In this document: positions 3,476-53,454 of the stretch, piece by piece | How the letters are laid out: each line of letters begins with the position of its first letter | Position numbering within the stretch: position 1 is the stretch's first letter | Assembly (NCBI RefSeq): GCF_041886205.1 | Contig: NZ_CP169029.1 | DNA: 64,000 bases | Source: Escherichia coli | GTDB taxonomy: Bacteria; Pseudomonadota; Gammaproteobacteria; Enterobacterales; Enterobacteriaceae | Direction: 5' to 3' (one strand) | Notes under the pieces: model-generated | The model's input: the letters and a program-made list of their open reading frames with translations, nothing else | What the model was told of the DNA's origin: nothing | The model's database searches: none | Translations under genes and position numbers: made by a program

Positions 3476-4693
3476 ATGCCCGAACCCGTAGCCGAACCCG
3501 CGCTAAACGGATTGCGCCTGAATTTGCGTATTGTCTCCATTGTCATGTTTAACTTCGCCAGCTACCTCACCATCGGGTTGCCGCTCGCTGTATTACCGGG
3601 CTATGTCCATGATGTGATGGGCTTTAGCGCTTTCTGGGCAGGATTGGTTATCAGCCTGCAATATTTCGCCACCTTGCTGAGCCGTCCTCATGCCGGACGT
3701 TACGCCGATTTGCTGGGCCCCAAAAAGATTGTCGTCTTCGGTTTATGCGGCTGCTTTTTGAGCGGTCTGGGATATCTGACGGCAGGATTAACCGCCAGTC
3801 TGCCCGTCATCAGCCTGTTATTACTTTGCCTGGGACGCGTGATCCTTGGGATTGGGCAAAGTTTTGCCGGAACGGGATCGACCCTGTGGGGCGTTGGCGT
3901 GGTTGGCTCGCTGCATATCGGGCGGGTGATTTCGTGGAACGGCATTGTCACTTATGGGGCGATGGCGATGGGTGCGCCGTTAGGTGTCGTGTTTTATCAC
4001 TGGGGCGGCTTGCAGGCGTTAGCGTTAATCATTATGGGCGTGGCGCTGGTGGCCATTTTGTTGGCGCTCCCGCGTCCGACGGTAAAAGCCAGTAAAGGCA
4101 AACCGCTGCCGTTTCGCGCGGTGCTTGGGCGCGTCTGGCTGTACGGTATGGCGCTGGCACTGGCTTCCGCCGGATTTGGCGTCATCGCCACCTTTATCAC
4201 GCTGTTTTATGACGCTAAAGGTTGGGACGGTGCGGCTTTCGCGCTGACGCTGTTTAGCTGTGCGTTTGTCGGTACGCGTTTGTTATTCCCTAACGGCATT
4301 AACCGTATCGGCGGCTTAAACGTAGCGATGATTTGCTTTAGCGTTGAGATAATCGGCCTGCTACTGGTTGGCGTGGCGACTATGCCGTGGATGGCGAAAA
4401 TCGGCGTCTTACTGGCGGGGGCCGGGTTTTCGCTGGTGTTCCCGGCATTGGGTGTAGTGGCGGTAAAAGCGGTTCCGCAGCAAAATCAGGGGGCGGCGCT
4501 GGCAACTTACACCGTATTTATGGATTTATCGCTTGGCGTGACTGGACCACTGGCTGGGCTGGTGATGAGCTGGGCGGGCGTACCGGTGATTTATCTGGCG
4601 GCGGCGGGACTGGTCGCAATCGCGTTATTACTGACGTGGCGATTAAAAAAACGGCCTCCGGAACACGTCCCTGAGGCCGCCTCATCATCTTAA
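3476..4693 (+). CDS. yhhS: MFS transporter YhhS
   Basis: ORF 3434..4693; start taken at MPEPVAEP (3476) to match the remembered 405 aa protein; multi-TM MFS-like sequence. Confidence 0.85.
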   Translation: MPEPVAEPALNGLRLNLRIVSIVMFNFASYLTIGLPLAVLPGYVHDVMGFSAFWAGLVISLQYFATLLSRPHAGRYADLLGPKKIVVFGLCGCFLSGLGYLTAGLTASLPVISLLLLCLGRVILGIGQSFAGTGSTLWGVGVVGSLHIGRVISWNGIVTYGAMAMGAPLGVVFYHWGGLQALALIIMGVALVAILLALPRPTVKASKGKPLPFRAVLGRVWLYGMALALASAGFGVIATFITLFYDAKGWDGAAFALTLFSCAFVGTRLLFPNGINRIGGLNVAMICFSVEIIGLLLVGVATMPWMAKIGVLLAGAGFSLVFPALGVVAVKAVPQQNQGAALATYTVFMDLSLGVTGPLAGLVMSWAGVPVIYLAAAGLVAIALLLTWRLKKRPPEHVPEAASSS

Positions 4694-4696
4694 AAC

Positions 4697-5254
4697 TTAC
4701 TGAATAACCAGCGTATTAATGATGTTTTCTGCGGTGGTCTGCGCTTTTTGCTGATCGTCAGCTGGCAGAGTAATTTGCATGGTCAGCAGTTGATTACCCA
4801 CGTTACCCAGAATAACGGAAGAGTACGCCGTCTGGCCTTTCGCGGAGATAATACTGTCTAACTGCTGCATTTTGTGACCTTTCAGCTCAATGGCTTTATT
4901 GGTTACCACTTGCAGCTGCGGATCGCGGCTACGTTGCTGATCTTCCAGACGCTTCGCCAGCACCGCCAGATCTTCTTTCGGATCATCGCCCATGATGACG
5001 ATGACTGCTTTCTGCCCGGTGGCGTCGGACCAGACATGCATGTTATTGGCCTGCGTTCCCAGCTTACCGCTCTGGTCGGTCATATCCGCTGGCAGCGAGA
5101 AACTTAACTTGCCATCAAGCAGGTTGACGGGATTCCCGGTAGCGTTACTTTCCGCGACCGAACCCTGCGCCGTAGCGTTAGTGTCTTTATCATCACAGGC
5201 CGCAAGCCCCATAACCAGCAGGCCAATTCCGACATATTTAACCAGATTGCGCAT
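4697..5254 (-). CDS. dcrB: Periplasmic lipoprotein DcrB
   Basis: ORF 4697..5308; internal start [20 protein letters not shown] (lipoprotein signal plus lipobox) gives 185 aa matching remembered DcrB. Confidence 0.85.
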
Positions 5255-5326
5255 TGACTTCTTCCTTTCGATAAACGGCCATAACGGCTCATTCATCCAT
5301 CTTATCACAACTCTGATAACGAACCT

Positions 5327-5992
5327 TTAACTCGCCTGCAAAGCGTTGATTTCGGATTTATCTGCCAGTCTTTTCAACAGCATATTGAGTAATACACCAT
5401 ACATTGGCAGGAAGAAAACGATACTGATTAACACTTTGAAACAGTAATCGACTAGCGCGATTTCCATCCAGTGTTCAGCCATAAAGGCATCCGGGCTACG
5501 CCAGAAGGCAATGAAGAAGAAGGCCAGTGTGTCGCTGACGTTACCGAACAGTGTGGACGCTGTCGGTGCCAGCCACCAGCGGCGACTCTGACGCAGGCGG
5601 TTAAAAACGTGCACGTCGAGGATCTGTCCCAGCGCGTAGGCCATGAAACTGGCGGTGGCGATACGGGCGACAAACAGGTTGAAGTGGGCGAGTGCGCCGA
5701 ATCCCTGCCATGACCCCATATAAAACAGCGATGAGATGACGTAGGAGATCAGCAATGCGGGGATCATCACCGCAAAGATGATACGACGGGCCAGCGGTGC
5801 GCCAAAAATACGCACAGTCAGGTCGGTAGCGAGAAAGATAAACGGAAAGCTAAACGCGCCCCAGGTGGTGTGAAAACCAAAAATGGAGACGGGAAGCTGA
5901 ACCAGATAGTTACTGGAGGTGATCACCAGAAGATGAAATAACGATAACCAGAACAACGCCTTATAGCGTTGAGTTTGCGAGAAAACGTTCAT
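5327..5992 (-). CDS. yhhQ: Queuosine precursor transporter YhhQ
   Basis: 221 aa polytopic membrane protein matching remembered YhhQ. Confidence 0.9.
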   Translation of the reverse strand: MNVFSQTQRYKALFWLSLFHLLVITSSNYLVQLPVSIFGFHTTWGAFSFPFIFLATDLTVRIFGAPLARRIIFAVMIPALLISYVISSLFYMGSWQGFGALAHFNLFVARIATASFMAYALGQILDVHVFNRLRQSRRWWLAPTASTLFGNVSDTLAFFFIAFWRSPDAFMAEHWMEIALVDYCFKVLISIVFFLPMYGVLLNMLLKRLADKSEINALQAS

Positions 5993-6212
5993 ATTGTACC
6001 TTTTTGATTAACCATTGGGGTGAGGGAACCCAATACGTACGACACGTCTGTTACCTTAACATAATAACGTGCTTACCCTTTTTTCGAGCCGCCGCATGAT
6101 ACTGCTTTACGTTGACAATGCAATGGTTAATTTTCACGCAATCGTTAACCTGGTTTGCTTACGGACTCACAGGGCGTAAACTAGCGCCGTTTTTTTATGT
6201 GATGAGAAGAAA

Positions 6213-6458
6213 ATGACCGATCTCTTTTCCAGCCCTGACCACATACTCGACGCACTTGGCCTGCGCTGCCCGGAACCCGTAATGATGGTGCGCAAAACAG
6301 TGCGCAATATGCAGCCAGGTGAAACGTTGCTGATTATTGCTGACGATCCGGCGACGACCCGCGATATTCCTGGGTTTTGTACCTTTATGGAACACGAACT
6401 GGTTGCGAAAGAGACGGATGGACTGCCTTATCGTTATTTGATTCGCAAAGGCGGTTGA
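6213..6458 (+). CDS. tusA: Sulfur carrier protein TusA
   Basis: 81 aa ORF with the LRCPEP active-site Cys motif; matches remembered TusA. Confidence 0.92.
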
Positions 6459-6502
6459 TGGGGGCTGATTGGCTTCGATGCCGCCTTTTCCCCTCACCCT
6501 AA

Positions 6503-6556
6503 CCCTCTCCCCAGAGGGGCGAGGGGACCGATCGCGCTCAATGTTGCGATCGGTTT
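6503..6556. terminator. Two adjacent hairpins between convergent tusA and zntA (likely bidirectional terminator)
   Basis: Inverted repeats ccctctcccc/ggggcgaggg (6503..6525) and accgatcgc/gcgatcggt (about 6527..6556) sit between the two stop codons. Confidence 0.5.
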
Positions 6557-6559
6557 GCC

Positions 6560-8758
6560 TTATCTCCTGCGCAACAATCTTAACGCATTCGCCGTCACCA
6601 GCACCGTCGCACCCGTATCTGCCAGCACCGCCAGCCACAACCCGGTCATCCCTAACAGCGTGGTGACGAGGAAGATCCCTTTCAGCCCCAGCGCAATGGT
6701 GATGTTCTGGCGGATATTGGCGTGAGTGGCGCGTGCCAGTTCAATCATTTGCACCAGGCCGCGCAGGTGGTTATGGGTTAATGCTGCGTCGGCGGTTTCC
6801 AGCGCCACGTCTGTGCCACTGCCCATTGCAATCCCAATGGCGGCAGCTTTCATCGCTGGCGCGTCGTTAATACCGTCACCGACCATCGCCAGCGGCGCAT
6901 GTTGATTCAGCTCGGTCACCGCTTTGACTTTATCTTCCGGCAACAGGCCCGCTTTAAACTCCAGCCCCAGCTCCCCGGCAATTGCCGCCGCTGCGCGTGG
7001 ATTATCGCCGGTGAGGATCACTCCTTTAACCCCCAGCGCGTTCAGTTCACTGATGGCAGTTGCAGCGTCGGCGCGCAGGGTATCCTGCAATGCAATGATA
7101 CCCAGCACGTCATCATTACGTACTACCAGCACAACCGTTTGCCCGGCGCTTTCCAGTTCATTAATCAAACCAGCAAATGCATCAGCGGGATGTTTCCCGG
7201 CAGCGCAAATCAATACGCGCTCACCGTTAACCTGCGCTTCAATGCCAGACCCGACCAGCGCCCGCTGTGATTCGGCGGCGGGAATGGCGAGTGCAGCAAC
7301 CTGTGCTTCGCGCACGATGGCTTGCGCCAGTGGATGCGTCGCGCCTTGCTCGACCGCCGCCGCCAGTGTCAGCAGTTCAGATTCACTAATACCCGTTGCC
7401 GGATGAATCGCGGTAACGCGCGGTTTACCGACGGTCAGCGTACCGGTTTTATCAAACGCCACCTGAGTAACACGACCTAGTTGTTCCAGCGCCGCTCCGC
7501 CTTTAATCAACGCCCCACGACGCGCTGCTGCCGCCAGCCCGGAGGTAATCGCCGCGGGCGTGGAGATAACTAACGCACACGGGCAGCCAATCAGCAGCAG
7601 CGTCAGGCCTTTATAAATCCACTCCTGCCAGCTGGCGGCAAACAGCAGCGGTGGCACCAGCGTCACCAGCAGGGCGACGGCCATAATCGCTGGCGTATAA
7701 ATACGGCTGAAACGGTCGATAAACCGCTCAATGGGGGCGCGGCGCTCTTCGGCTTCTTCGATCAGTTTCAGAATCCGGTCAATGGCGCTGGCACCCGGTT
7801 CTGACAGCACTTCCAGCGTTACCAGACGGTCTACGCTGGTGGCTCCTGCAGGAACTTTATCGCCCGTTGCGCGCTCCACCGGAATGGATTCTCCGGTCAG
7901 GGCGCTTTCATCAAAACTGGCAAACGGTGAGAGCAGTTTACCGTCGGCAGGCAAACGCCCACCTGCGGCGACTTCAATCACATCGCCAGGCCGCAGGCTG
8001 TTAATCGCCACCTCTTCCCGCTCACCGTTACGCAGGCGCGTGGCGGTTTCTGGTTTCAGCGCCATTAAAGCGCTAACGCCCTGACGCGCGCGGCTGGCGG
8101 CCCAGCCTTCCAGTCGTTCACCAATCAAAAACAGCAGCAACACCATCGCAGCTTCAGCCGTTGCGCCAATAAACAGTGCACCAATAGCGGCTACGCTCAT
8201 TAAGGTTTCAATGGCGAAGTAGCTGCCGGATTTGATCAGCCGTAATGCCTGACGAGCAATCGGGTACAGCCCAACCAGCGTGGTCGCGATAAACGCCAGT
8301 TGCCCGAACGGATGATTAAATTGCTCCAAACCCCAGCTGATTGCCATCATCACGATAAGCGTAATCAGCGGCAGATTCTCTTTCAGGCGCGATGCTTGTG
8401 GCTCGTCGGCGGCCTGCTCATCGCGCAGGGAATAGCCCGCTTTTTGCACCGTAGATTCAACCTGGGCACGGATGTCATTGTCGGCATCAACCACCAGTTT
8501 TTCGGTGGCGAACAACACCTGCACCTGATTCACGCCTGCAAGCTGGCGCACGGCATTTTCTACCTTGCGCGCACAGGCGGCGCAGTCCATGCCGCTGACT
8601 TTCCAGCTATAGCGGGTGCCGGAGACGTTTTCAGAGAGCGTTGGCGAGCTGGAACATGCGCCGTCGCAGCAACAGTCGTTGGCGTTCTGTACCGTGGTTA
8701 GCGGTTTGAACGCAGCAAATTGAGGGGCTTTCTTGCCGTGATTGTCAGGAGTCGACAT
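6560..8758 (-). CDS. zntA: Zn/Cd/Pb-translocating P-type ATPase ZntA
   Basis: 732 aa ORF with N-terminal CCCDGAC and GMDCAAC metal-binding motifs, CPC transmembrane motif and DKTGTLT phosphorylation motif. Confidence 0.95.
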   Translation of the reverse strand: MSTPDNHGKKAPQFAAFKPLTTVQNANDCCCDGACSSSPTLSENVSGTRYSWKVSGMDCAACARKVENAVRQLAGVNQVQVLFATEKLVVDADNDIRAQVESTVQKAGYSLRDEQAADEPQASRLKENLPLITLIVMMAISWGLEQFNHPFGQLAFIATTLVGLYPIARQALRLIKSGSYFAIETLMSVAAIGALFIGATAEAAMVLLLFLIGERLEGWAASRARQGVSALMALKPETATRLRNGEREEVAINSLRPGDVIEVAAGGRLPADGKLLSPFASFDESALTGESIPVERATGDKVPAGATSVDRLVTLEVLSEPGASAIDRILKLIEEAEERRAPIERFIDRFSRIYTPAIMAVALLVTLVPPLLFAASWQEWIYKGLTLLLIGCPCALVISTPAAITSGLAAAARRGALIKGGAALEQLGRVTQVAFDKTGTLTVGKPRVTAIHPATGISESELLTLAAAVEQGATHPLAQAIVREAQVAALAIPAAESQRALVGSGIEAQVNGERVLICAAGKHPADAFAGLINELESAGQTVVLVVRNDDVLGIIALQDTLRADAATAISELNALGVKGVILTGDNPRAAAAIAGELGLEFKAGLLPEDKVKAVTELNQHAPLAMVGDGINDAPAMKAAAIGIAMGSGTDVALETADAALTHNHLRGLVQMIELARATHANIRQNITIALGLKGIFLVTTLLGMTGLWLAVLADTGATVLVTANALRLLRRR

Positions 8759-35466: not shown

Positions 35467-36807
35467 GTGACTACATTAACGCTTGTTTTAACAGCAGTAG
35501 GGTCTGTTTTACTGCTGCTGTTTTTAGTCATGAAGGCGCGTATGCACGCTTTCCTGGCTTTAATGGTGGTGTCTATGGGGGCTGGCCTTTTTTCCGGTAT
35601 GCCGCTCGATAAAATCGCAGCGACGATGGAAAAAGGGATGGGAGGCACCCTCGGCTTCCTGGCGGTGGTTGTCGCCCTGGGAGCTATGTTTGGCAAGATC
35701 TTACATGAAACCGGCGCAGTCGATCAGATTGCCGTCAAAATGCTCAAATCCTTCGGCCACAGCCGCGCGCATTATGCCATTGGCCTTGCGGGGCTGGTTT
35801 GTGCGCTACCGCTGTTCTTTGAAGTGGCGATTGTTCTGCTGATTAGCGTTGCTTTCTCAATGGCGCGCCACACCGGTACGAACCTGGTGAAGCTGGTAAT
35901 CCCATTATTCGCAGGCGTGGCGGCAGCGGCGGCGTTCCTGGTGCCAGGGCCAGCGCCAATGCTGCTGGCATCGCAGATGAACGCCGATTTTGGCTGGATG
36001 ATCCTGATTGGCCTGTGTGCGGCAATTCCGGGAATGATTATTGCCGGGCCGCTGTGGGGTAACTTCATCAGCCGTTACGTTGAGCTGCATATTCCTGACG
36101 ACATCAGCGAACCGCATCTCGGCGAAGGCAAAATGCCATCTTTCGGATTCAGCCTGTCGCTGATCCTGCTGCCGCTGGTGCTGGTAGGGCTGAAAACCAT
36201 TGCCGCGCGTTTTGTGCCGGAAGGATCAACTGCTTACGAATGGTTTGAGTTTATCGGTCATCCGTTTACCGCGATTCTGGTTGCTTGTCTGGTGGCGATT
36301 TACGGTCTGGCAATGCGTCAGGGCATGCCAAAAGACAAAGTGATGGAGATTTGCGGTCACGCGCTGCAACCGGCGGGGATCATTCTGCTGGTGATTGGTG
36401 CGGGCGGCGTGTTCAAACAGGTGCTGGTTGACTCTGGCGTAGGTCCGGCACTGGGCGAAGCGTTAACCGGCATGGGCCTGCCGATTGCTATCACCTGCTT
36501 CGTGCTGGCCGCTGCAGTGCGCATCATTCAGGGGTCTGCCACCGTAGCCTGTTTAACGGCGGTGGGACTGGTGATGCCAGTCATTGAACAACTGAACTAC
36601 TCTGGTGCGCAAATGGCGGCACTGTCGATTTGTATCGCTGGTGGTTCGATTGTTGTCAGCCACGTTAACGACGCTGGTTTCTGGTTGTTCGGTAAATTTA
36701 CCGGCGCGACCGAAGCCGAAACGCTGAAAACCTGGACCATGATGGAAACCATCCTCGGCACTGTCGGTGCCATCGTTGGGATGATTGCGTTCCAGCTGTT
36801 GAGTTAA
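35467..36807 (+). CDS. gntU: Low-affinity gluconate transporter GntU (GntP family)
   Basis: 446 aa polytopic ORF matching remembered GntU. Confidence 0.93.
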   Translation: MTTLTLVLTAVGSVLLLLFLVMKARMHAFLALMVVSMGAGLFSGMPLDKIAATMEKGMGGTLGFLAVVVALGAMFGKILHETGAVDQIAVKMLKSFGHSRAHYAIGLAGLVCALPLFFEVAIVLLISVAFSMARHTGTNLVKLVIPLFAGVAAAAAFLVPGPAPMLLASQMNADFGWMILIGLCAAIPGMIIAGPLWGNFISRYVELHIPDDISEPHLGEGKMPSFGFSLSLILLPLVLVGLKTIAARFVPEGSTAYEWFEFIGHPFTAILVACLVAIYGLAMRQGMPKDKVMEICGHALQPAGIILLVIGAGGVFKQVLVDSGVGPALGEALTGMGLPIAITCFVLAAAVRIIQGSATVACLTAVGLVMPVIEQLNYSGAQMAALSICIAGGSIVVSHVNDAGFWLFGKFTGATEAETLKTWTMMETILGTVGAIVGMIAFQLLS

Positions 36808-36820
36808 TTACTGCGACAAA

Positions 36821-36852
36821 TTACTGCGAGCTTGCTCGCAGTAATTCATTTC
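36821..36852 (+). terminator. gntU rho-independent terminator
   Basis: Stem ttactgcgag/ctcgcagtaa with loop cttg followed by a T-rich run. Confidence 0.7.
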
Positions 36853-36946
36853 TCTTATCTCCTCTCTTCATCTTTTTGATCCCTCTCGCAAATTTACCTG
36901 CTAATAATCCGTTCTAATCACTGCCTAAAGATCGCAGGAGATAAAG

Positions 36947-39043
36947 ATGGAAAAGCACGGAGCTGAATTGCTTTTACAGCGGATGTTAGGAAATACCACC
37001 GCTACTTTCAGGAAAGGGCAATGGGAAGCCATAGACGCGGTGGTGAACCAACGGCGAAAACTGCTGGTTGTCCAACGCACTGGCAGGGGGAAAAGTGCCG
37101 TGTACTTCATCGCCAGTAAAATCTTCCGCGATCGCGGTGCTGGCCCGACAATTATCATCTCTCCTTTGCTTGCCCTGATGCGTAACCAGGTTGCCGCCGC
37201 TGAACGGTTAGGTATTACGGCTGAAACGTTGAATTCTACAAACAGGGAAGAATGGCAGCGTATTAGCGATAAGTTGCTGCAAGGTGAGGTCGATTGCTTG
37301 CTGGTTTCCCCGGAACGTTTGGCAAACCAGGACTTTATCGAAACGGTTTTATATCCTATAGCCGATCGTATTGGCTTGCTTGTGGTCGACGAGGCGCACT
37401 GCATCTCTGATTGGGGCCACGATTTTCGCCCGGATTACCGACGTATATTAGATATTTTGCGCCAACTGCCTGCGAATATCCCAGTTCTGGGTACAACCGC
37501 GACAGCGAATAACCGTGTCGTTGAGGATATCCGTCAGCAATTGGGTGACATTGTGATTCAGCGTGGAACGCTGGCTCGCGAAAGTTTGGCGCTTGATGCC
37601 TTAGTCTTAGGTGAACAGTCATCCCGTCTGGCATGGTTAGCAACGGTTATCCCTCAGTTTTCCAAATCGGGAATTGTTTATACCCTGACTACTCGCGATG
37701 CCGAACTTGTCGCCGAGTGGTTAAGGACAAATGGTATCAGTGCATTTGCTTACTACAGCGGCGTGACTTGTGAAGGCGCGGAAGATTCTAATACTGCCAG
37801 GGAATATCTGGAGCAGGCGCTGCTGGCAAATAAAATCAAAGTGCTGGTCGCGACGACGGCATTAGGTATGGGGTTTGATAAACCTGATTTAGGTTTCGTC
37901 ATTCATTATCAAATGCCGGGGTCTATTGTCGGTTACTACCAACAGGTAGGGCGTGCCGGGCGTGCTATAGATTCCGCTGTTGGCATATTGCTTTGTGGTG
38001 GTGAAGACCGCGCTATTCATAAATTCTTCCGTGAAAGCGCCTTTCCTGCGGAGGCGCAAATTCATGAAATACTCAACGTACTTAGCGAGAATGACGGTCT
38101 TACCCTACGAGGCATTGAACAACGGACGAATCTCCGTTATGGGCAAATAGAAAAAGCACTGAAATTATTGGTAGCTGAAAATCCATCGCCTGTGGTGTAT
38201 ACCGAGAAATTATGGCGCAGAACTATCGTCAGTTTCTCTCCTGACCATGAACGAATTAACCATTTGATGAATCAGAGAAAAAATGAGCTGGCAGATGTTG
38301 AAAGCTATATCACGACCAAGGAGTGCAAAATGCAATTTCTGCGCCGCGCACTCGATGAGCCAAGTGCCGAACGTTGTGGTAAATGTAGCAGTTGTCTTCA
38401 GCATCCGTTGCTGTCGCCCGATATTGATAGCGGCTTACTCCATGCGGCAAATTTATTTATTAAACACGCTGACCTGCCATTAAATCTCAATAAACAGGTA
38501 GCATCTGGGGCTTTTACGCAATACGGATTTAAAGGGAACTTGCCTGCGGGTTTACAAGGATCTACGGGGCGAGTCCTTTCTCGTTGGGGAGATTCCGGGT
38601 GGGGAAAGCAGGTAGCACAGGAGAAAAAAACGGGGCGATTCAGTGATGAGCTGGTGGAGGCATGTGCGGAAATGGTTCGCCAACGCTGGAATCCGCATCC
38701 TGAACCAACCTGGGTATGCTGCGTTCCTTCATTAAGGCACCTCGACCTGGTTCCTGATTTTGCCCGGCGACTGGCGGCGAAACTTGGCTTACCTTTTATT
38801 GATGCCATTGAAAAAGTCGTGGACAATCCACCGCAGAATATGCAGCAAAACCGTTTTCACCAGTGTCAAAATCTCGACGGGGCGTTTGTGATTACCCCTC
38901 CTTTGATGCCAGGTCCGGCGTTGCTGGTTGACGATATCGTGGATTCTGCATGGACGCTGACAGTTCTGACAGCACTGTTACGCCAGGCAGGTTGCCCGAC
39001 GGTTTATCCTCTTGCCCTTGCTTCTACCTCGGTAAAAAATTGA
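36947..39043 (+). CDS. RecQ-family DEAH-box helicase with zinc-binding motif and C-terminal phosphoribosyltransferase-like (ComF-like) domain; accessory gene absent from the K-12 gntU-yhgN junction
   Basis: 698 aa ORF with strong SD (aggag, 36936..36940). Motifs: Walker A TGRGKSAVY, RecQ-type motif II VVDEAHCISDWGHDFRPDY, TATA motif, helicase-C QQVGRAGR, Cys cluster C..CGKCSSC, C-terminal PRTase-like LLVDDIVDSAWTL. Confidence 0.88.
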   Translation: MEKHGAELLLQRMLGNTTATFRKGQWEAIDAVVNQRRKLLVVQRTGRGKSAVYFIASKIFRDRGAGPTIIISPLLALMRNQVAAAERLGITAETLNSTNREEWQRISDKLLQGEVDCLLVSPERLANQDFIETVLYPIADRIGLLVVDEAHCISDWGHDFRPDYRRILDILRQLPANIPVLGTTATANNRVVEDIRQQLGDIVIQRGTLARESLALDALVLGEQSSRLAWLATVIPQFSKSGIVYTLTTRDAELVAEWLRTNGISAFAYYSGVTCEGAEDSNTAREYLEQALLANKIKVLVATTALGMGFDKPDLGFVIHYQMPGSIVGYYQQVGRAGRAIDSAVGILLCGGEDRAIHKFFRESAFPAEAQIHEILNVLSENDGLTLRGIEQRTNLRYGQIEKALKLLVAENPSPVVYTEKLWRRTIVSFSPDHERINHLMNQRKNELADVESYITTKECKMQFLRRALDEPSAERCGKCSSCLQHPLLSPDIDSGLLHAANLFIKHADLPLNLNKQVASGAFTQYGFKGNLPAGLQGSTGRVLSRWGDSGWGKQVAQEKKTGRFSDELVEACAEMVRQRWNPHPEPTWVCCVPSLRHLDLVPDFARRLAAKLGLPFIDAIEKVVDNPPQNMQQNRFHQCQNLDGAFVITPPLMPGPALLVDDIVDSAWTLTVLTALLRQAGCPTVYPLALASTSVKN

Positions 39044-40245
39044 TGAATCTTTCAGCCAATGCACAAGCGACTCTCCTGCTAACCAGCGATTTTTCTCGCG
39101 CGGCGGCGAGTGAGCATAAACCTCTTAGTAATAGTGAATGGGGGAAGTTTGCATTATGGCTGAAGCACCAACGTATCAGTCCCGCCGAGCTTCTGGTGCC
39201 GCAACCGCAAGAGAAACTTACAGGCTGGAGCGATCCGCGTATTTCTCAGGAGCGTATTCTTGGCTTGCTGGCGCGCGGTCATAGTCTGGCGTTGGCGGTA
39301 GATAAGTGGCAACGCGCCGGTTTATGGATCATAACCCGAGGAGATGCTGATTATCCCGTTCGCTTGAAAAACCGATTGCGAACGGATGCACCTCCCGTTT
39401 TATTTGGCTGCGGGAATAAAGCATTACTGCAAGCGGAAGGTATGGCGATTGTTGGCTCGCGAGATGCTCCGACTGACGATTTGCGCTATACCCAACAACT
39501 GGCCGCGAAACTGGCCCAACAGGGGATTTGCGTTATCTCTGGTGGTGCGCGAGGTATTGATGAATGTGCAATGGCGTCGGCACTGGAGGCCGGGGGAACT
39601 GCCGTTGGCGTATTAGCTGATAGCTTGTTAAAAACGAGTACGTTAGTGAAATGGCGTGAAGGGCTTATAGCAGGCAACCTGGTGTTGATTTCGCCGTTTT
39701 ACCCAGAGGTGCGTTTCACCGTCGGCAATGCGATGGCGCGAAATAAATATATTTATTGCCTTGCTGAAAGCGCAATGGTTGTACGTGCGGGAATGACCGG
39801 TGGAACGATAACCGGGGCGATAGAGGCATTAAAACATCAGTGGCTGCCTGTGCAGGTTAAACCAAATCAGGATATGCAATCAGCCAATTCACGATTAGTA
39901 GAAAATGGGGCGTCATGGAGTGCTGAACAGGCTGAGAATGTGCCGATCAGACTGTCAGACGTTCCTGGGCTGATGTATGACAGAGCACTCCGTAACGCTC
40001 AACCAGAACTGTTTTCGCTGTATGAAGATGACGCAAATTACGCAGTAATGCCCGCGCATACGCCTGTCGATTTTTATCAACTCTTTGTGGCGGAACTGGC
40101 GATCTTTGCAAAGGAATCGATAAGTATTGAAAGGCTGTCGTCTTGTACTGGTTTAACCATCGAACAAATTAGTGTGTGGCTGAACCGCGCAGAAGAAGAG
40201 GGAAGGGTTATCCGATTGGGCGAAGGTCATTATCAGTTCAGGTAA
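39043..40245 (+). CDS. DprA/Smf-like protein (Rossmann/SLOG-fold core with N-terminal extension and C-terminal winged-helix-like tail); accessory
   Basis: ORF track frame 38950..40245; start taken at MNLSANAQ (39043), whose ATG overlaps the upstream TGA stop (TGATG). Core motifs IVGSRDAP, VISGGARGIDECAMASALEAGG and LISPFYPEVRFTVGNAMARN resemble DprA. Confidence 0.85.
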   Translation: MNLSANAQATLLLTSDFSRAAASEHKPLSNSEWGKFALWLKHQRISPAELLVPQPQEKLTGWSDPRISQERILGLLARGHSLALAVDKWQRAGLWIITRGDADYPVRLKNRLRTDAPPVLFGCGNKALLQAEGMAIVGSRDAPTDDLRYTQQLAAKLAQQGICVISGGARGIDECAMASALEAGGTAVGVLADSLLKTSTLVKWREGLIAGNLVLISPFYPEVRFTVGNAMARNKYIYCLAESAMVVRAGMTGGTITGAIEALKHQWLPVQVKPNQDMQSANSRLVENGASWSAEQAENVPIRLSDVPGLMYDRALRNAQPELFSLYEDDANYAVMPAHTPVDFYQLFVAELAIFAKESISIERLSSCTGLTIEQISVWLNRAEEEGRVIRLGEGHYQFR

Positions 40246-40248
40246 TAA

Positions 40249-40284
40249 AACAGGTGCCGCGTCTGGTTGTGTGCAGCACCTGTT
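40249..40284. terminator. Hairpin between the DprA-like gene and convergent yhgN
   Basis: Perfect 9 bp inverted repeat aacaggtgc/gcacctgtt around an 18 nt loop, immediately after the stop at 40245. Confidence 0.5.
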
Positions 40285-40290
40285 TGAACC

Positions 40291-40884
40291 TTACCCCTTC
40301 ATCCACATTCGAATGCCGTCGAGGAACATCTGGGTTGCCATCATCACCAGAATCAATCCCATCAGGCGTTCAAGTGCGTTCACCCCTTTCTCGCCCAGCA
40401 GACGTAAAAATAGCGAAGACTGTAGCAGGATGACAAAGGTGCCGCCCCAGGCCAGCAGCAGAGCAATCACCAGATGTCCCATCTGATTTGGGTACTGATG
40501 AGACAACAACATCAGCGTGGCGAGAATAGTCGGCCCGGCGACTAACGGAATTGCCAACGGCACGATAAATGGCTCTTCACCTGCCGGAAGCCCGCTGCTA
40601 TTTCCTGAAGCGCTGGGGAAAATCATCTTAATGGCGATCAGAAACAGTATGATGCCGCCAGAAATGGAGACGGTTTCTGCTCGCAGGCTAAGAAATGCCA
40701 GAATTTTCTCACCCGCAAACAGGAACACCAGCATCACCAGGAGAGCAATAAGCAACTCTCGCACCATGATTGCCCGCCGTCTTTTCGGTTCAGTATGTTT
40801 CAGTACGGACATGAAAATAGGTAGGTTTCCGAGCGGATCCATAATCAGGATCAATAAAACTGCTGCAGAAATGATTTCATTCAT
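40291..40884 (-). CDS. yhgN: MarC family inner membrane protein YhgN
   Basis: 197 aa polytopic ORF matching remembered YhgN. Confidence 0.9.
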   Translation of the reverse strand: MNEIISAAVLLILIMDPLGNLPIFMSVLKHTEPKRRRAIMVRELLIALLVMLVFLFAGEKILAFLSLRAETVSISGGIILFLIAIKMIFPSASGNSSGLPAGEEPFIVPLAIPLVAGPTILATLMLLSHQYPNQMGHLVIALLLAWGGTFVILLQSSLFLRLLGEKGVNALERLMGLILVMMATQMFLDGIRMWMKG

Positions 40885-51936: not shown

Positions 51937-53454
51937 ATGGAAAGAATAATGCAAAACAGAAAATGGATTTTGACCTCGCTGGTAATGACTTTTTTCGGCA
52001 TCCCCATACTGACGCAATTTTTGGCAGCGGTTGTTGCTATGCTGGGGGGCGGGCTTGCCGCTATTCTTGAGGTTTGCAATTTACTCTTTACGCCAGCAAT
52101 TTATCTTCTACTCAACGTCTTTATGCTGACTCTGGGGGCGATAATAATATTTTTCTCTGGTCGCGTGTGGGCGGGCGATAGTGCACCAGAAAAAAAAGAA
52201 ATAGCCGTCTGGCGACAATGTCTTTTTTTAGTACCTGCTTTATTCACCCTGGTTGGCTGGATAATCACGCTACATCTGGCAGATTATCAATTTCGCCAGA
52301 TGGGAGACGGTTGGTTGGCAAACCTTATGCTTCCCTGGTTGGGCATTTTTTTAGTCTCATTAGTGGGTGGTGAGTACTGGTGGATAGTCATTATACCCGT
52401 TGGCGCGCATATCAGTTTTTCGCTGGGGTACGGTTGGCCGACCAGACATCTTTTAACGGGCACGTCCGGGTTACGTTGCCGTAATTCCCTCTTGTTTATC
52501 CTTCTCATGCTTGGTTTTGTCGCCGGTTACCAGGCTTATTTATATAAACAGCTTAATCCCGGCGTCGGTGTCCGCGAAAATATTGATACCTGGGCCTGGC
52601 GACCCGATAAACTCAATAATCAACTGACACCATTACGTGGTAAACCGCAAATTCAGTTTACGCAAAACTGGCCGCGACTCGATGGTGCTACGGCGGCGTA
52701 CCCAATTTATGCCTCTGCCTTTTATGCGTTGAGCGTTATACCGGAAGATTTTCACACCAGGGAATATCTGGAGAACTCTCATACCCCCGATGCATATAAC
52801 AGGATTGTTAAAGGTGATGCCGATATTATTTTTGTGGCGCAACCCTCCGGTAGGCAGAAAAAACGCGCTGAGGAATCGGGCGTCACTTTGCTATACACGC
52901 CATTTGCCCGTGAAGCATTCGTTTTCATCGTCAATGCGGATAATCCGGTTAATTCCCTGACTGAACAACAGGTGCGTGACATCTTCAGTGGTGCAATTAC
53001 CAACTGGCGTACTGTTGGCGGTAACGATCAGGAGATCCAGACCTGGCAACGCCCGGAAGACTCTGGCAGCCAGACGGTGATGCAATCACAGGTCATGAAA
53101 AATGTCCGCATGATCTCGCCGCAGGAAACAGAAGTGGCAAGTATGATGGAGGGAATGATTAAAGTCGTTGCCGAATACCATAATACAAAGAACTCAATTG
53201 GCTACACCTTCCGCTATTACGCCACGCAAATGAACGCTGACAAGAATATCAAATTGTTAGCGATTAACGGTATTGCACCCACTGCGGAAAATATCCGTAA
53301 CGGCAAATATCCGTATATCGTCGAGGCATTTATGGTAACGCGGGAAAATATGACCTCAGAAACACAAAAATTGGTGGAGTGGTTTTTAACGCCGCAGGGG
53401 CAGAGCCTGGTGGAAGATGTAGGTTATGTGCCGATGTATAAGACGCTACCTTAA
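51937..53454 (+). CDS. Polytopic membrane domain fused to a C-terminal PstS-like (phosphate-binding-protein fold) periplasmic domain; K-12 has only the yzgL pseudogene here
   Basis: 505 aa ORF; N-terminal ~200 aa hydrophobic, C-terminal region with PBP-like motifs (DGATAAYPIY..., SGSQTV). A TATAAT-like element lies ~25 bp upstream. Start may be M1 (51937) or M5 (51949). Confidence 0.75.
   Translation: MERIMQNRKWILTSLVMTFFGIPILTQFLAAVVAMLGGGLAAILEVCNLLFTPAIYLLLNVFMLTLGAIIIFFSGRVWAGDSAPEKKEIAVWRQCLFLVPALFTLVGWIITLHLADYQFRQMGDGWLANLMLPWLGIFLVSLVGGEYWWIVIIPVGAHISFSLGYGWPTRHLLTGTSGLRCRNSLLFILLMLGFVAGYQAYLYKQLNPGVGVRENIDTWAWRPDKLNNQLTPLRGKPQIQFTQNWPRLDGATAAYPIYASAFYALSVIPEDFHTREYLENSHTPDAYNRIVKGDADIIFVAQPSGRQKKRAEESGVTLLYTPFAREAFVFIVNADNPVNSLTEQQVRDIFSGAITNWRTVGGNDQEIQTWQRPEDSGSQTVMQSQVMKNVRMISPQETEVASMMEGMIKVVAEYHNTKNSIGYTFRYYATQMNADKNIKLLAINGIAPTAENIRNGKYPYIVEAFMVTRENMTSETQKLVEWFLTPQGQSLVEDVGYVPMYKTLP

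Follow-up and report, generated by a model that had tools for sequence, protein, structure and literature searches.

In the ExPEC strain F11, rqlHI has been characterized as an operon resembling a toxin-antitoxin pair, in which the toxicity of a helicase-phosphoribosyltransferase was shown experimentally to be neutralized by its partner protein (Russell and Mulvey, 2015; PMC4670107). In that work rqlH and rqlI were found to be co-transcribed, with the promoter, terminator, junction and transcript ends left unmapped (PMC4670107), and our literature search yielded no publication that analyzes the transcription start site, the terminator or the junction of the E. coli rqlHI/PsyrTA system. Intrinsic terminators situated close behind stop codons have been measured by Li et al. 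(2016; NAR 44:2554; PMC4824070), who reported that terminators a few bp past the stop are almost fully repressed and that efficiency climbs up to a distance of ~27-30 nt; two construct series with distances of 17-18 nt gave efficiencies of 0.12 and 0.8, which indicates a strong dependence upon sequence. Additionally, defense “islets” devoid of mobility genes have been described from the gaps between core genes in a survey of E. coli hotspots, the main text of which does not name the gntU-yhgN locus considered here (PMC10121019).

We analyzed positions 36808-36946 of a 64-kb stretch of E. coli DNA (the window), a region that begins directly behind the stop codon (TAA, 36805-36807) of the gluconate transporter gene gntU (35467-36807, + strand) and extends to the start codon of a helicase gene. 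An earlier note on this DNA had described the region as the left junction of an insertion and had offered two origins for a 9-mer repeated there, namely a footprint of the insertion event or a local event at the adjacent hairpin. Our analysis indicates that the region is probably the left end of an rqlHI (PsyrTA) allele in which the repeat is a 13-bp tandem duplication of a hairpin arm.

The two genes that follow the junction are the known rqlHI/PsyrTA toxin-antitoxin/phage-defense cassette. The first of these, rqlH or psyrT (36947-39043, + strand), encodes the toxin, a RecQ-like helicase that carries a phosphoribosyltransferase domain at its C terminus; it matched the PsyrT profile with 1057 bits over residues 3-697 and the Pfam families DEAD and Helicase_C above their cut-offs, with weak, sub-threshold Pfam matches to RecQ_Zn_bind and, at residues 605-683, to Pribosyltran. 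The second, rqlI or psyrA (39040-40245, + strand), encodes the DprA-like antitoxin, was matched end to end by the PsyrA profile (661 bits; the PADLOC profiles for the two proteins were PDLC03928 and PDLC03927) and by Pfam DNA_processg_A (8e-51), and overlaps the rqlH stop by the ATGA at 39040-39043. The rqlI start at 39040 is backed by the end-to-end alignment with the PsyrA profile; the RefSeq ORF is longer and runs from 38950. These two genes are the only ones in the cassette, which bears out the earlier observation that it carries no mobility gene, and a tRNA is absent as well. Among representative genomes of other species, the closest RqlH proteins were 64-65% identical and had no gntU context, and examination of the regions upstream of psyrT homologues in 27 other species yielded no comparable hairpin with repeat. 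As the homologues elsewhere lack the hairpin and the repeat, both belong to the Escherichia locus and not to PsyrTA cassettes generally.

Comparison with genomes lacking the cassette, which the earlier note had proposed as the means of defining the endpoints, gave exact limits. Cassette-less genomes align with the window up to 36807 and again from 40291, that is, from stop codon to stop codon, with K-12-type homology ending at the stop of gntU and resuming exactly at the stop codon of yhgN (40291-40884, - strand). The cassette thus delimited spans 36808-40290 (3.48 kb), with rqlH and rqlI preceded by a hairpin and a leader and followed by a second hairpin; the region under study is accordingly the left boundary of strain-variable DNA, as had been claimed, with the cassette present in some E. 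coli and another spacer in its place in K-12-type strains. The K-12 arrangement was found in 3774 of the 5426 complete E. coli genomes; in it the convergent genes gntU and yhgN are separated by a 56-bp spacer with a strong terminator of its own (GTTTGTTCGCCCGGTAGTTGTGACGCTACCGGGTTCTTTTCGAAAAACTCTCCTCG), a terminator that the cassette allele does not contain. Neither cassette end resembled the 56-bp spacer significantly (43-80% of shuffles scored equally). Since homology breaks exactly at both stop codons and the spacer is unrelated, the cassette replaces the 56-bp spacer and does not split it. At the right end, the hairpin AAACAGGTGC...GCACCTGTTT (40248-40285, no strand assigned), which is unrelated to the left hairpin and invariant across strains except for one SNP, is followed on the minus strand by UUUUAUUA, a good U-tract, and would therefore serve as the terminator of yhgN. 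The G+C content of the cassette shows a modest drop (49.4% versus 52-53%). In three other enterobacterial genera, the spacers at the YhgN loci were each different and unalignable.

The 9-mer TTACTGCGA occurs twice past gntU, at 36808-36816 and 36821-36829, precisely where it had been reported. Read out in full, the identity covers 11 nt, AATTACTGCGA, at 36806-36816 and 36819-36829 (both + strand) with a period of 13 nt, such that the two units lie head to tail with a spacer of 2 bp and the opening AA of copy 1 is shared with the TAA that ends gntU. An inverted third copy is located at 36836-36846, and all three copies of the 11-mer in the 64-kb window fall within 36806-36846, i.e., three in 41 bp. 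Copies 2 and 3 pair perfectly, confirming that the second copy supplies the 5′ arm in the hairpin next to gntU (36819-36846, + strand), a candidate intrinsic gntU terminator whose 3′ arm is the inverted copy. The perfect stem comprises 12-13 pairs, of which 5 are G-C (arms 36819-36831 and 36834-36846), and the inverted pair of 11-mers forms a 28-bp core with an 11-6-11 geometry (AATTACTGCGA-GCTTGC-TCGCAGTAATT). The hairpin RNA folds with -15.9 kcal/mol alone and with z = -4.5 in context (0 of 200 shuffles were as good), and a terminator scan identified it as the sole terminator-like site on the + strand in 36600-40500. Copy 1 can also pair with the 3′ arm, more weakly (-11.3 versus -16.2 kcal/mol), and as this pairing leaves the same tail, no anti-terminator logic follows from it.

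Tandem Repeats Finder made no call at the junction, the score of two 13-nt units being below its threshold, and an Rfam search of 36600-37200 at a permissive threshold returned noise matches only. A close 9-mer repeat is in itself unremarkable, with ~5.6 k-mer matches expected per 64 kb; for a close 11-mer repeat the expectation is 0.36 per window, and for an 11-mer that copies an adjacent hairpin arm it is ~25 x 4^-11, with no instance in 300 random 200-mers. The repeat at the junction is almost certainly real. One other close 11-mer repeat is present in the window, at 53289/53305.

The 139-bp junction was found in 1650 of the 5426 complete E. coli genomes, once in each, on the chromosome and between gntU and rqlH, and the cassette in 1647-1650 of them. 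Two copies of the repeat were present in 1649 of the 1650 junctions, and a 53-bp core was at least 99% identical in 1637 of the 1650 genomes; strain F11 (H121) has the identical 53-bp junction, and Nissle 1917 and 6EVA are carriers as well. In an alignment of 31 sequences, which included a lineage only ~92% identical, both hairpin arms were invariant, the loop varied once (T/A) and polymorphism began directly 3′ of the hairpin. The identity of the cassette between phylogroups was 97-99%, compared with 95-100% for the flanks, the exceptions to this flank-like divergence being mosaic patches of SNPs at 36893-37085 and 37261-37390. A metagenome scan for the hairpin resulted in 22 contigs, all with the hairpin in the gntU context and two from divergent lineages. 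Contig L104 is 96% identical to the window, with the cassette intact. Contig L100, whose identity to complete E. coli genomes does not exceed 92-93%, holds a decayed cassette, in which the left junction, the leader and ~41 rqlH codons are kept and joined to the right-end hairpin; the deletion lies between two CTGGTTGT 8-mers (window positions 37064-37071 and 40263-40270). Copy 1 reads AATTACCGCGA in both L100 and L104, a single mismatch with C at 36812, and this variant was absent from all complete E. coli genomes. As the junction is common to lineages that have diverged by ~8%, it is old and not the boundary of a recent island. The description of the locus as an insertion relative to K-12 is consequently too simple: the boundary itself stands, while between phylogroups the allele has diverged to the same degree as the core DNA on either side and is present in the ~92%-identical lineage. 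The boundary is one without mobility genes, maintained by recombination in the core flanks. The near-fixation of two copies may be due to shared ancestry rather than selection.

Slipped-strand mispairing can duplicate short segments in tandem and can delete DNA between short direct repeats, the classical events of the lacI hotspot type. An event of this kind beside the palindrome most probably duplicated the 5′ arm of the hairpin, yielding 11 identical bases plus the 2-bp spacer. The unduplicated layout can be seen in HB6 (NZ_CP040305.1, around 5115764-5115800), a genome of the O157 lineage, in which one unit has been lost by a precise 13-bp deletion (junction ...GAGTTAATTACTGCGAGCTTGCTCGCAGTAATT...), the expected product of slippage between 11-bp direct repeats; as a result the hairpin arm starts inside the gntU stop codon. 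Because other O157 genomes have two copies, the one-copy state of HB6 is derived. In the HB6 lineage rqlH is a frameshifted pseudogene, and the single collapse in HB6 could be an assembly error. The two units of the common form differ in their last two bases (CA versus GC), such that a simple 13-bp duplication requires two later substitutions or else a more complex event. On this evidence we regard a local duplication of the arm, and not a target-site duplication or insertion scar, as very probable; of the two origins offered earlier for the repeat, recombination or slippage at the hairpin arm is favored and the insertion footprint is not.

The hairpin lies 11 nt past the stop of gntU, the last gene of the gntRKU cluster, and judging from its sequence it is likely to terminate gntU transcripts. 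Its U-tract is imperfect (CAUUUCUCUU): the tail CATTTCTCTT reaches the scan criterion of 5 T in 8, yet has C and A breaking its run of T, and the stem ends in A-U pairs. The sole demonstrable consequence of the duplication is that the hairpin starts at +11 instead of -2 nt, counted from where the stop codon ends. As a ribosome at the stop codon would block hairpins close to it, the extra 13 nt would be expected to raise the efficiency of termination, and better termination would in turn limit gluconate-induced read-through of gntKU into the genotoxic rqlHI operon. At 11 nt from the stop the terminator should still leak, and the distance series of Li et al. predict only partial relief there. 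That the duplication was selected as a spacer is possible but doubtful, and a neutral duplication is at least as likely.

The leader between the hairpin and rqlH opens with a strain-polymorphic, pyrimidine-rich tract (84%; 36847-36890, + strand), in which the imperfect U-tail CATTTCTCTT is succeeded by a CT-rich stretch, and ends with the Shine-Dalgarno sequence AGGAG (36936-36940) ahead of the rqlH ATG at 36947 (together 36936-36949, + strand), which agrees with the strong ribosome-binding site noted previously. The accompanying claim that the leader has no obvious sigma-70 consensus also held, there being no site at 9/12 on the + strand; a relaxed search returned a single match (7/12) for the window allele and zero for the Nissle allele, neither outcome being convincing. 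Within the most polymorphic part of the leader there is a conserved block of 17 nt, ATCCGTTCTAATCACTG (36907-36923, + strand), which contains TCTAAT (36913-36918) as a weak -10 candidate lacking a usable -35, and which would be the best candidate for a weak promoter belonging to rqlHI itself. The segment TTATCTCCT (36855-36863) is complementary to the Shine-Dalgarno region of rqlH. Analysis of RNA structure and anti-Shine-Dalgarno pairing in the leader gave z = -0.08 for the window allele (not significant) and z = -1.8 for the B2 allele (weak); as the pairing partners differ between the alleles, we treated this pairing as an effect of low complexity.

With a single hairpin 11 nt past the stop and no consensus promoter, expression of rqlHI could depend upon the leakiness of the terminator. 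Taken to its full extent, this would mean that rqlHI has no effective promoter of its own and is expressed mainly through a leaky, translation-sensitive gntU terminator, with the arm duplication as a selected spacer that sets the leak of gluconate-induced gntKU transcription into the operon. We consider this proposal unlikely as a whole. If it were true, the toxicity of RqlH and the defense it provides would be coupled to the availability of gluconate in the gut.

Toxin-antitoxin operons are commonly autoregulated via palindromic operators, and the three 11-mers could be viewed as an array of protein-binding sites, either an operator for RqlI/PsyrA or a host regulator, or the core plus an accessory arm site of a tyrosine recombinase. 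Three exact copies in 41 bp, together with arms that are invariant in 31 sequences beside a variable leader, speak for such an array; RqlI/PsyrA has a C-terminal winged-helix-like tail, and the 11-6-11 layout resembles that of dif-type sites. Against it, the palindrome is located 101-128 bp upstream of the ATG, just behind the gntU stop and in a place where promoter elements are absent, and upstream of psyrT homologues in other species a comparable palindrome or repeat is missing. Furthermore, copy 1 can be lost (HB6) or altered (L100, L104), and the other end of the cassette holds no partner site. Compared by eye with the dif arms, the arm sequence gave no ungapped match. The 28-bp core fits a dif-like Xer site, as in IMEX elements, in its geometry (a resemblance only), and differs in that the second bounding site is absent. 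Overall, a binding array is improbable.

Slightly less probable still is the idea that copy 1 is a reshaped remnant of the 3′ arm of an ancestral K-12-type terminator, with the left junction formed by stepwise decay of the spacer instead of by duplication of the arm. The series of forms on which it is built runs from K-12 (...GCTACCGGG) through the metagenome contig L105 (OLQL01007874.1; ...GCTACCG joined to ACAAATTACTG) and L100 (TTACCGCGACAAA) to the window (TTACTGCGACAAA). In L105, 31 nt of K-12-type spacer run into ...ACAAATTACTGCGAGC with a CG overlap of 2 nt, the K-12-type part has a SNP that is found in no complete genome, and the C at 36812 in L100 and L104 is that of TACCG. L105 is chimeric, however: its E. 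coli part ends at base 849, in a conserved RecQ motif, and is continued by Bacteroidetes-like DNA. Since the contig is chimeric and its hybrid junction occurs in 0 of the 5426 complete genomes, we gave this junction little weight, though if genuine it would complicate the history of the locus. Several extra steps would be needed to pass from the hybrid junction to the common form, and decay from an unrelated sequence does not account for the match of copy 1 to the hairpin arm at 10-11 of 11 positions.

A transposition- or integration-type event that duplicated a 9-bp target, leaving the repeat as a target-site duplication or other footprint, is highly improbable. The repeat does lie exactly at the left edge of strain-variable DNA, starting at the stop codon where K-12 homology ends, and a tandem 9-mer in K-12, which would have marked it as native terminator sequence, was looked for and is absent from the 3774 K-12-type genomes. 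The insertion-scar explanation fails instead on structural grounds. Like the target-site duplications of IS elements and transposons, the repeat is short and direct (9-11 bp) and borders on variable DNA; such duplications flank the element with a copy on either side, and the empty site has one as well, whereas at gntU both copies are on the left, 2 bp apart, with neither at the right end (40246-40290) nor in the empty site, where a different 56-bp sequence has been replaced and not split. Terminal inverted repeats, a transposase, an integrase and a tRNA are all absent, and a comparison of the cassette ends for terminal direct or inverted repeats revealed only shared 7-mers, as in 60% of shuffles. 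In addition, copy 2 is half of a perfect palindrome, so that what is repeated is hairpin sequence and not a target. The repeat does not mark insertion endpoints. A coincidental repeat, whose copies have no common origin, has a negligible chance of being the explanation, for although 64 kb should by chance contain several close 9-mer repeats and a second close 11-mer occurs in the window (53289/53305), this repeat is 11 nt long, copies the adjacent palindrome arm and is present three times in 41 bp, with 0 of 300 random 200-mers showing the like.

The cassette is already known as rqlHI/PsyrTA, and the junction is built of known kinds of elements, an ordinary feature in that respect. In the literature searched we did not find descriptions of the stop-to-stop replacement, the arm duplication, the one-copy variant or the decayed copy in the sister lineage. 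The gain is thus at the level of annotation, in that E. coli rqlHI/PsyrTA now has exact limits (36808-40290), and, on the evidence of sequence, the cassette appears to bring candidate terminators of its own at both ends, in place of the K-12 spacer. The cassette allele is old, being common to the ~92%-identical Escherichia lineage, and the junction offers no insertion signature to exploit. The idea of experimental value is that the distance of a terminator may tune read-through into a toxin operon, and for this the natural one-copy form in HB6 is a ready-made test construct.

Compared with the stop-proximal intrinsic terminators that have been measured (PMC4824070), the hairpin behind gntU has the same GC-cored, perfect stem-loop and T-rich tail, and its distance from the stop, whether 11 or -2 nt, lies within the measured range; it differs in its interrupted U-tract and in a spacer that copies the hairpin's own arm and permits an alternative pairing. 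The likeness to classical slippage lies in the units of 13-bp period beside a palindrome, the loss of one unit in HB6 and the deletion between 8-bp direct repeats in L100, whereas the last two bases differ between the units. As in the mobility-gene-free defense islets that occupy core-gene gaps and are spread through homologous recombination of their flanks (PMC10121019), a two-gene defense/toxin-antitoxin system is present in 30% of genomes, with mosaic SNP patches typical of recombination, and in other enterobacterial genera the gntU-yhgN spacer holds other content; unlike a multi-cargo hotspot, the locus takes only two alternative states in the 5426 E. coli genomes. Finally, the window cassette and the rqlHI of F11 are alike end to end in both proteins as well as in gene order and overlap, with no difference at the level of the genes, and the anatomy of the boundary described here is a detail additional to the published F11 system.

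Comparison of the window allele of the rqlHI cassette with that of B2 strains (Nissle, ST131) resulted in the identification of two dense patches of SNPs, at 36893-37085 and 37261-37390, within which identity falls to 86-87%, whereas the remainder of the cassette is 97-99% identical; one of the differences lies in the Walker A region (TGRGKS vs. TGWGKS). At the first patch the metagenome contig L104 agrees with the B2 strains and at the second with the window, so the region is a recombination mosaic.

Two further contigs, L105 and L100, likewise come from metagenomes. In L105 (OLQL01007874.1, 196-262) the left junction is a hybrid, in which the gntU TAA is followed by 31 nt of the K-12-type spacer and then by ACAAATTACTGCGAGC, with a CG overlap at the join. 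This junction was found in none of 5426 genomes, and the spacer portion carries a T>C SNP which is present in no complete genome; from base 850 on the contig is itself chimeric and continues as Bacteroidetes-like DNA, the join falling inside a RecQ motif. L100 (OBUV01000015.1, 480-900) holds a decayed cassette from an Escherichia lineage that is 92-93% identical to E. coli, retaining the left junction, the leader and approximately 41 rqlH codons which a deletion between two CTGGTTGT repeats (window 37064-37071 and 40263-40270) has fused onto the right-end hairpin.

A single copy of the 11-mer that is repeated at the left junction was found in only 1 of 1650 carrier genomes, that of E. coli HB6 (locus L089, 4500-4534; NZ_CP040305.1, about 5115764-5115797). 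The deletion is exactly 13 bp, by which the hairpin arm comes to lie within the gntU stop codon, and the rqlH of this strain is a pseudogene. In O157:H7 genomes the annotation gives the toxin gene rqlH a frameshift and an internal stop (4640-6764 in the O157:H7 locus L003 and 4629-6753 in L089, equivalent to about 37800-38000 in the window), whereas rqlI, the antitoxin gene, is intact. Only one more 11-mer in the window is repeated exactly at close range, namely AAATATCCGTA (53289-53299 and 53305-53315, a 16-nt spacing), which falls within the ORF at 51937-53454.

Within the pyrimidine-rich leader, TTATCTCCT (36855-36863) is a perfect complement of the rqlH SD region AGGAGATAA (36936-36944); in B2 alleles the SD is altered and the pairing partner is another CT stretch. 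For the window allele the fold was not significant, at z = -0.08; for B2 it was weak, at z = -1.8. The block ATCCGTTCTAATCACTG (36907-36923) is nearly invariant among the 31 aligned sequences, with about one third of the surrounding leader positions varying between alleles, and may be a weak -10 (TCTAAT) or another functional element. On the minus strand, a 13-codon ORF (MNYCEQARSNLSQ, then a stop; 36849-36808) runs antisense across the hairpin and both repeats with GAGGAG 9 nt upstream. In strain KN93 the change 36848 A>G removes the ATG of this ORF, which the palindrome and the purine-rich complement probably generate as a by-product.

RefSeq assigns the DprA-like gene 431 aa (38950-40245), starting 94 nt within rqlH. 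The PsyrA profile matches end to end the 401-aa product of 39040-40245, whose ATGA overlaps the rqlH stop, and the RefSeq start is thus probably too far upstream.

Beyond E. coli, the gntU-yhgN interval has different content in each enterobacterial genus sampled, comprising a 146-aa ORF with REP-like palindromes (L090, 3598-4770), a 310-bp spacer (L091, 3598-3906) or, in a locus without gntU, a YdgH/BhsA-like gene (L092, 3595-4301); the site is variable well outside the species.
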